Positions 2,464-2,894 of a DNA stretch of 41,235 nt are shown one piece after another (positions within the stretch are counted from its first letter, which is position 1; each line of letters starts with the position of its first letter). The position numbers and the translations under genes are program-made. The notes under the pieces were generated by a model, which saw only the letters and a program-made list of their open reading frames with translations, did not search any database and was not told the origin of the DNA. Source of the DNA: Dirinaria sp. TL-2023a (lineage: Eukaryota); assembly GCA_051941275.1 (NCBI GenBank), contig JAVEBF010000042.1, positions 1 through 41,235 of the forward strand, given 5' to 3'.

Positions 2464-2894
2464 TCATTTGTAATCGGCCTCCATATCTCTCTTATAATCG
2501 GCAGCTAGCTCATCCCTTTTGTAGTCGGCAGCCAGATCATCCCTCTTGTAGTCGGCAGCCAGATCATCTCTCTCAGCATTGCTCCTCACCTCGTGCCGTT
2601 TGTAGTCCGCCTGCACCGTGTCCTCGGTGGCGCGGCCGAGCACCGCGTCGCCCCCCTTGTAGTCGGCATGGACGTTGCCCCGCTTGTAGTCGGCTTGGAC
2701 ATCGCCGCGCTTATAATCCGCAGCAGTAACGTCTCTGTTGGTGTTGCGAGCCGCTTGGTCACCTTTTTTTCCCCAATTCAGACATTAGTCGAGTTTAGTG
2801 TGGGGAGATAATAGATCAGAGGTGGTTTCTTACTGATCGGAGCACAGGCGGCCGAACAGATCAGTGGAAGAATGAAGAATTTTGAGTAGAGCAT
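2464..2894 (-). CDS. Secreted Kex2-processed repeat protein (KEP) / candidate fungal RiPP precursor, 119 aa, 8 x ADYK
   Basis: Exon 1 2894-2834; intron 2833-2763 (GTAAGA...GACTAAT...AAG, 71 nt); exon 2 2762-2464 (TGA). Spliced translation: MLYSKFFILPLICSAACAPISDQAARNTNRDVTAADYKRGDVQADYKRGNVHADYKGGDAVLGRATEDTVQADYKRHEVRSNAERDDLAADYKRDDLAADYKRDELAADYKRDMEADYK. Hydrophobic signal peptide, 6 KR dibasic sites, synonymous codon variation between repeats. Confidence 0.9.
2488..2568 (-). repeat. 27-bp coding tandem repeat (3 units, D[D/E]LAADYKR) within the precursor gene
   Basis: Minus strand: GATGATCTGGCTGCCGACTACAAGAGG / GATGATCTGGCTGCCGACTACAAAAGG / GATGAGCTAGCTGCCGATTATAAGAGA. Confidence 0.9.

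Follow-up and report, generated by a model that had tools for sequence, protein, structure and literature searches.

For Kex2-processed repeat proteins (KEPs), entry into the ER, cleavage by Kex2 and trimming by Kex1 are established (PMC9769878). The closest characterised peptides to the precursor described here are the linear -AADW products of the mushrooms Lentinula and Pleurotus (PMC9769878). Both kinds of precursor combine a signal peptide with dibasic-flanked repeats, a variable N-terminal part and a C-terminal Ala-Asp-aromatic end, found before KR/RR and again at the end of the protein. The mushroom peptides carry Trp, come from agaricomycetes and were detected unmodified according to that account, whereas our precursor belongs to the Ascomycota, has Tyr in all 8 repeats and has a recurrent oxidase neighbour; none of its repeats ends in Ala-Asp-Trp.

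The dikaritins ustiloxin (UstA/UstQ/UstYa/Yb) and phomopsin (PhomA/PhomQ) also come from KEP-type precursors with an acid before the Tyr (PMC6514808, PMC10540207), and a tyrosinase-type gene and a methyltransferase lie nearby, as they do here. In UstA cores the acid directly precedes Tyr (PMC6514808). The UstQ tyrosinase is required for the first intermediate (PMC6514808, PMC10540207), and UstQ together with UstYa/Yb gives meta-oxidation of Tyr (PMC10540207, PMC6514808). Because dikaritin-cluster tyrosinases are known from knockouts and from co-expression with DUF3328 enzymes (PMC6514808), their own reaction has had to be deduced. Residues follow the Tyr in dikaritin cores, whereas nothing follows it in our repeats; the dikaritin methyltransferase is an N-methyltransferase, ours an O-methyltransferase; and the ust and phom tyrosinases lie 7-8 genes from their precursors (PMC7329392), while ours is the immediate head-to-head neighbour.

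Two further systems are similar. Asperipin-2a (AprA/AprY; PMC6514808) likewise has a Tyr-ended core and a small cluster, but is described there with one DUF3328 enzyme, no tyrosinase, and three Tyr plus Phe, whereas here each unit has a single Tyr and the enzyme is of the tyrosinase type. The lichen RiPP Clan R1 of Parmeliaceae (PMC12048977) also combines a tyrosinase with an O-methyltransferase in lichen fungi; that clan carries two DUF3328 genes but lacks an identified repeat precursor, whereas our precursor is present on a contig without DUF3328.

The window that we analysed is the whole 41,235-nt contig C42 of a lichen fungus, Dirinaria sp. TL-2023a. It holds the tyrosinase-type gene expected near a dikaritin precursor, but neither a PF11807 match nor an HxxHC-type motif was found on C42. 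Because DUF3328 is class-defining for dikaritin RiPP clusters (PMC12048977), we do not file the module as a dikaritin, with the qualification that the contig extends 2.46 kb past the precursor before it ends and that one related locus, L071, has a DUF3328 gene. By analogy, it may work like the tyrosinase step of the dikaritin pathway. What is novel is the pairing of a Tyr-ended precursor with a five-histidine oxidase, without DUF3328 on the contig, and the sequences point to the two genes forming a pared-down, so far undescribed peptide-modifying pathway.

The repeat precursor and its family

The precursor gene runs from its ATG at 2894 to 2464 on the minus strand and encodes 119 aa in the model that we chose from 18 enumerated in-frame splice options. 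Exon 1 (2834..2894, 61 nt) carries the start codon and a putative signal peptide, a 71-nt GT..AG intron follows (2763..2833), and exon 2 (2464..2762) carries 8 Ala-Asp-Tyr-Lys repeats. The preliminary description had proposed this model, with its separate 61-nt exon and intron 2833-2763, and RNA contigs of a ~95% identical relative bear it out, skipping the exact intron in all 3 runs (X1-X3). These are assembled contigs from one lichen sample of one study; they represent a relative, another strain, and carry no expression level. A signal peptide is likely by a hydropathy heuristic (9-residue Kyte-Doolittle peak of 2.48 at residues 5-14, with small residues at the likely cleavage site).

On recount, exon 2 contains the six ADYKR, one ADYKG and one terminal ADYK-stop motifs previously reported. 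All eight ADYK motifs in the six frames of the window lie inside this gene and none outside it; in 20,000 shuffles of the exon-2 residues the count never exceeded 3. Part of the exon consists of 27-nt tandem units (2485-2573 and 2646-2712, minus strand). Across the 8 repeats the Ala-Asp-Tyr-Lys codons differ only synonymously, and none of the relative's listed exon-2 substitutions (at least 14) alters a motif A, D, Y or K; among them, the window's KG site is KR in the relative, which also has one additional 27-nt unit. With six ADYKR and two variants, the protein exceeds the three similar dibasic-separated repeats that the sequence definition of a KEP asks for, and it is a KEP by that definition, with its processing predicted. 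In-silico cleavage yields GDVQADY, DDLAADY, DELAADY and DMEADY (calculated MH+ 767.321, 782.320, 796.336 and 743.255), the Tyr-ended 6-7-mers already anticipated, together with three longer pieces (16, 16 and 26 aa) that also end in Tyr.

Direct searches returned little. Exon 2 matched 0 Pfam families, the precursors had no NCBIfam match, the ESM Atlas gave no usable match to exon 2, and no database entry matching the window precursor was returned, such searches being weak on short repeats. A word-indexed protein search with exon 2 alone found 0 matches in 1220 candidates, which is uninformative because a profile afterwards recovered the family. This profile, built from seven repeat segments, was compared with 1.84 billion representative proteins and gave 21 matches: 15 precursors with xDY-dibasic repeats, two of ADW type and four unrelated repeats (P0056, P0062, P0067 and P0072), which we set aside. 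A second search added P0085, for 16 homologues in total. Named members come from Periconia macrospinosa, Usnea florida and Botrytis sinoallii, so that the family spans the Lecanoromycetes, to which the window's host belongs, the Dothideomycetes and the Leotiomycetes. The two Trp versions (P0066 and P0071, with ADW-KR/RR; one from Leucoagaricus) are possibly distant kin of the -AADW family.

The earlier suggestion that selection acts on a C-terminal Tyr, drawn from the terminal Lys-stop, gains from the homologues, of which 10 of 16 end in Tyr-stop and one in Tyr-Lys-stop (5 of 16 end otherwise); the precursor at L071 also ends in Tyr-stop. The Tyr-stop ends of the homologues lend indirect support to cleavage by Kex2/Kex1 as well. 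Among 100 Tyr sites drawn from 21 sequences, Asp occupies position -1 in 89, Ala -2 in 65, I/V/M/L -4 in 74 and D/E -5 in 71, giving a consensus end of [D/E]-[I/V/M/L]-x-[A/P]-D-Y on units of 5-26 aa; these counts are partly circular, because the homologues were recovered by a profile of the motif itself. Since the terminal Tyr is the sole aromatic residue in 72 of 84 repeat units and Cys is absent from all 84, this Tyr is the obvious target for an oxidase.

We found no description of this precursor family in the open literature searched, KEP supplements included. By title, ADYKR led only to PD-1/PD-L1 or related immunology. The supplements searched gave no DYK/ADY in Umemura 2020, whose KEP table lists accessions without sequences, and no DYKR/DYRR in Le Marquer 2019 and Vogt 2022. 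The 2020 KEP catalogue has 22 Periconia rows, and the member from that genus is missing from them; some members may nonetheless be catalogued there under a type number, as accessions only. Tyr at the Kex2 site alone is not new, because it also occurs in a DUF3328-linked precursor of this genome and the -AADW KEPs (PMC9769878) place an aromatic there too; together with the FYYTGY core of asperipin-2a (PMC6514808), these weaken the preliminary view of an aromatic at the Kex2 site as exceptional.

The preliminary description had also allowed for assignment to a known pheromone. We rejected an alpha-pheromone precursor: the dipeptides after KR (GD, GN, HE, DD, DD, DE-type and DM) include no X-Ala/X-Pro of the kind that STE13 removes, and there is no MF_alpha/pheromone Pfam match. 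A weak pheromone-type lead remains in the ESM Atlas for the homologue P0057 (score 0.82, rank 4), whose scores there are all 0.85 or less.

The neighbouring oxidase and its recurrence

Head-to-head with the precursor and 1 kb upstream of it lies a tyrosinase-type (PF00264) short polyphenol-oxidase gene, which the earlier reading overlooked (3908..5191, plus strand; 368 aa; introns 4320-4382, 4480-4536 and 4911-4967). The RNA sample of the relative that shows the precursor's intron removed shows all three oxidase introns removed as well. The 1013 bp between the divergent start codons (2895..3907, no strand) are probably a shared promoter region of the two genes, as their arrangement suggests; a comparison of this intergenic region with the paralogous one on contig C2849 found no shared motif. 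The public NCBI model of 3908-5191, P0002, has 231 aa and is without the membrane anchor and CuA histidines of the RNA-supported 368-aa form.

The protein has the type-3 copper PF00264 domain and four-helix fold. A full-length relative, P0038, matches PF00264 with E 2.4e-35, and a model of the relative's oxidase (pTM 0.72) superposes on the Aspergillus catechol oxidase AoCO4 with Z 32.3 and rmsd 3.0 over 292 aligned residues. Like the short (type f) PPOs AoCO4 (4J3P) and TtPPO (6Z1S) (PMC11803259), to which Z is 31-32, it has the PF00264 fold and no C-terminal shielding domain, and its conserved cysteines are present. It differs from them in having a predicted N-terminal membrane anchor, a hydrophobic stretch at about residues 44-65, rather than a cleaved signal, in its CuB site, and in overall sequence (32-33% identity over the aligned part).

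Five of the six copper-binding histidines were found. His131, His139, His148, His276 and His302 are kept, while Pro280 stands where the second CuB His is expected. By pattern, H-x3-P replaces H-x3-H in 35 of 37 proteins of the oxidase family; of the two exceptions, P0009 was mis-caught and has H-x3-P by eye, and P0028 has neither form. The same pattern in 80 loci gave H-x3-P in 54, left 26 unmatched and found His in none, whereas two other tyrosinases of this genome have H-x3-H. HMMER alignments to hemocyanins are shifted in register, yet still leave one CuB His unmatched. Because only five canonical copper histidines are present, the chemistry may not be plain o-hydroxylation. Possibly the His-to-Pro site is a general trait of dikaritin-cluster tyrosinases; we found no mention of it in the literature searched. 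Relatives (P0002-P0038, L022-L101) form a family of membrane-anchored short PPOs, mostly DUF3328-linked, with the CuB His-to-Pro change, and viral contigs held no relative of the oxidase. Of 37 loci that span at least 8 kb, 32 carry DUF3328 motifs near the oxidase, although many of these loci are redundant; this marks the family as RiPP-associated and speaks for the pathway proposed below. The window copy alone has Ser287, against Phe in all 18 other alignment rows and in the ~95% identical relative.

We found the head-to-head pair at four independent loci: the window, a paralogue on C2849, L071/L073 (one species) and L066. This genome thus has the pair twice, and two other fungi have it as well. 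L071 additionally holds one DUF3328 gene and a GMC oxidoreductase. The C2849 copy has the same signal exon and two ADYKR before its contig ends, and its oxidase, which starts 0.8 kb away, is 42% identical to that of the window over the N-terminus (E 1.7e-13). Both tandem ADYKR sites of this genome adjoin the oxidase family, which it holds in two copies and one relic (L106, contig C1505:194-358), a decayed sequence with several stops. At L067, a related oxidase has a VY-RR variant of the precursor 1 kb downstream. Indirect evidence for a further pair comes from precursor P0085 and oxidase P0016, each listed on an ENA contig of 24,944 bases, while the Usnea florida precursor and the single Usnea oxidase found lie on separate contigs. 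The 61-nt phase-1 first exon recurs in L002, L066, L067, L071 and L073; we dropped it as a family marker, one of five unrelated control KEPs having it too.

A survey that started from the oxidases found at least two [D/V]Y[K/R]R motifs within 3 kb in 4 of 80 metagenome loci (L066, L067, L071 and L073). Leaving aside L066 and L071-L073, upstream sequence of 1.5 kb or more is available in 42 of the remaining 76 loci, and not one of the 42 carries such a repeat; consequently, the precursor goes with a few oxidase lineages and not with the whole family. A quick tree, from which 10 of 117 rows were dropped for short coverage, groups the precursor-linked oxidases (SH-aLRT 81), and trees of longer sequences (42 and 22 hand-picked rows) split them; a single origin is not rejected (p-AU 0.46).

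Proposed pathway and competing explanations

We consider it about evenly balanced that Kex2 and Kex1 release acidic Ala-Asp-Tyr-ended peptides whose Tyr the neighbouring oxidase modifies, which would make a minimal dikaritin-like pathway. The precursor would enter the ER through the signal peptide suggested by its hydropathy. Kex2 would cleave after each KR and Kex1 would remove the basic residues, leaving acidic peptides of 6-26 residues that end in Ala-Asp-Tyr-COOH. The oxidase, anchored by its N-terminal helix with its type-3-copper-like domain presumably in the lumen, would recognise the [D/E]-hydrophobic-x-A-D-Y end and oxidise the Tyr ring, most simply to DOPA, a step modelled on the role proposed for UstQ in ustiloxin synthesis. 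Later tailoring would depend on the locus, with an O-methyltransferase in the window and one DUF3328 oxidase at L071. The module would then be the first dikaritin step reduced to a precursor and a tyrosinase-type enzyme. Two literature findings count against this reading: the short PPOs that have been characterised use lignin-type methoxyphenols as substrates (PMC11803259), and the close -AADW analogues are released unmodified (PMC9769878). The missing copper histidine, the window's Ser287 and the separate contigs of the Usnea precursor and oxidase also weigh against it. The earlier idea of a C-terminal catechol peptide gains a tyrosinase-type head-to-head neighbour at four loci, while the product itself is still a prediction; a role for such a catechol in defence, signalling, metal binding or cross-linking is speculation.

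A stronger version, which we offer only tentatively, is a DUF3328-independent class whose C-terminal Tyr would be modified by a single enzyme, type-3-copper-like, membrane-anchored and with five histidines; in the extreme, the core would be one residue, yielding DOPA or O-methyl-DOPA. If true, this class would be the smallest system for learning what dikaritin-cluster tyrosinases do. The two-gene module and its synthesisable 6-7-residue substrates make the tyrosinase reaction directly testable, including at the Pro-for-His copper site. The family also extends the known KEPs by a group found across three classes of Ascomycota, one that has escaped at least one catalogue and would escape mining centred on DUF3328, and it supplies a defined product to seek in lichens, where conserved tyrosinase-containing RiPP clusters are described without an identified precursor (PMC12048977).

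The O-methyltransferase gene (PF00891; 6192..7694, minus strand) is convergent with the oxidase and possibly encodes a tailoring enzyme, its membership of the module being uncertain. In L079, a 47-55% identical relative of it and a related oxidase stand head-to-head, and weaker relatives occur in 14 other loci. The relative's assembled RNA contigs do not cover this gene, which is uninformative about its expression. Beyond it on C42 lie a formamidase and housekeeping genes.

Several mechanisms other than our preferred one would account for a Tyr-ended precursor beside an oxidase. The window could encode an ordinary cyclic dikaritin-type RiPP, in which a DUF3328 oxidase and the tyrosinase cross-link Tyr to an upstream residue, the DUF3328 gene lying off the contig or elsewhere in the genome. 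The 31 UstYa matches on other contigs of this genome and the nearby contig end leave room for such a gene, at L071 the precursor is followed, about 0.5 kb downstream, by a UstYa/DUF3328 gene, and in asperipin-2a a Tyr-ended core is cross-linked (PMC6514808). We nevertheless find this explanation unlikely: no DUF3328 occurs on C42 or within 3.8 kb downstream of the precursor at L067, the best counterpart of the L071 enzyme in this genome, at 40% identity, sits mid-contig on C30, and 3 of the 10 DUF3328 stretches examined in this genome have different precursors of their own.

It is quite unlikely, in our judgement, that the peptides act as linear signals and stay unmodified, as an ascomycete equivalent of the -AADW peptides, with the oxidase serving another substrate. 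Linear products of the SGTGEASAADW and MSGVAADW type have been detected, from precursors that also end at the aromatic residue (PMC9769878), and our Tyr-repeat profile caught two ADW-KR/RR precursors as well. KEP genes as a whole show no enrichment of tyrosinase genes in their vicinity (4.3% of 7878), nor do the two usually cluster in the absence of DUF3328 (PMC7329392), and this oxidase is without one copper ligand. Against these observations stand the head-to-head arrangement at four independent loci, with L067 in addition and with the pair duplicated within this genome, and the retention of Tyr rather than Trp beside a phenol-oxidase fold.

The preliminary description had offered, as its second possibility, a scaffold for a single modified Tyr: Ala-Asp would be the leader or recognition end, Tyr alone the core, and DOPA, O-methyl-DOPA or a derivative the product. 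Asp precedes Tyr in 89 of 100 sites while length and sequence further upstream are free, an ED motif precedes ustiloxin cores such as YAIG in UstA (PMC6514808), and an O-methyltransferase is a neighbour. We regard this as the less likely of the two ideas and as improbable overall, given that no peptidase gene was seen in the module, that conservation reaches position -5, that the -AADW analogues retain their N-terminal residues (PMC9769878) and that free tyrosine would presumably be a cheaper substrate. That the window copy is decaying and has no product is very improbable: in one repeat the KR now reads KG, Ser287 in the oxidase replaces a Phe that is invariant elsewhere and C1505 holds a decayed relic, but both frames are intact, the repeat codons differ only synonymously and both genes are spliced in the close relative.

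Other precursors and clusters

Other repeat precursors came to light near DUF3328 genes of this genome. On contig C402 (L107:3592-4172, minus strand), a KEP beside a DUF3328 gene has about 10 copies of a 14-residue unit ending in YPDSY-KR; the protein ends at Tyr, has two Tyr per core, resembles asperipin and has the same 61-nt first exon. Two further KEPs near DUF3328, both on the minus strand, have AAYGVY-type and VADGF-KR/RR repeats (L110:1349-1762 on C207 and L112:2034-2423 on C921).

Beside related oxidases, L080:3877-4257 and L101:6286-6684 hold repeat precursors of the MTMYY and PYTITVGQ types with DUF3328, and L029:3752-4516 holds a Tyr/Ser-rich secreted repeat protein without it. At L023, L033, L040, L055-L058, L075, L076, L078, L091 and similar loci, the oxidase is accompanied by one or two DUF3328 genes and often by an O-methyltransferase; repeat scans of these clusters found no precursor, and they resemble the likewise precursor-less Clan R1 (PMC12048977). 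Near one end of the window (45-551, minus strand) there is a 168-codon open frame that has no Pfam match.
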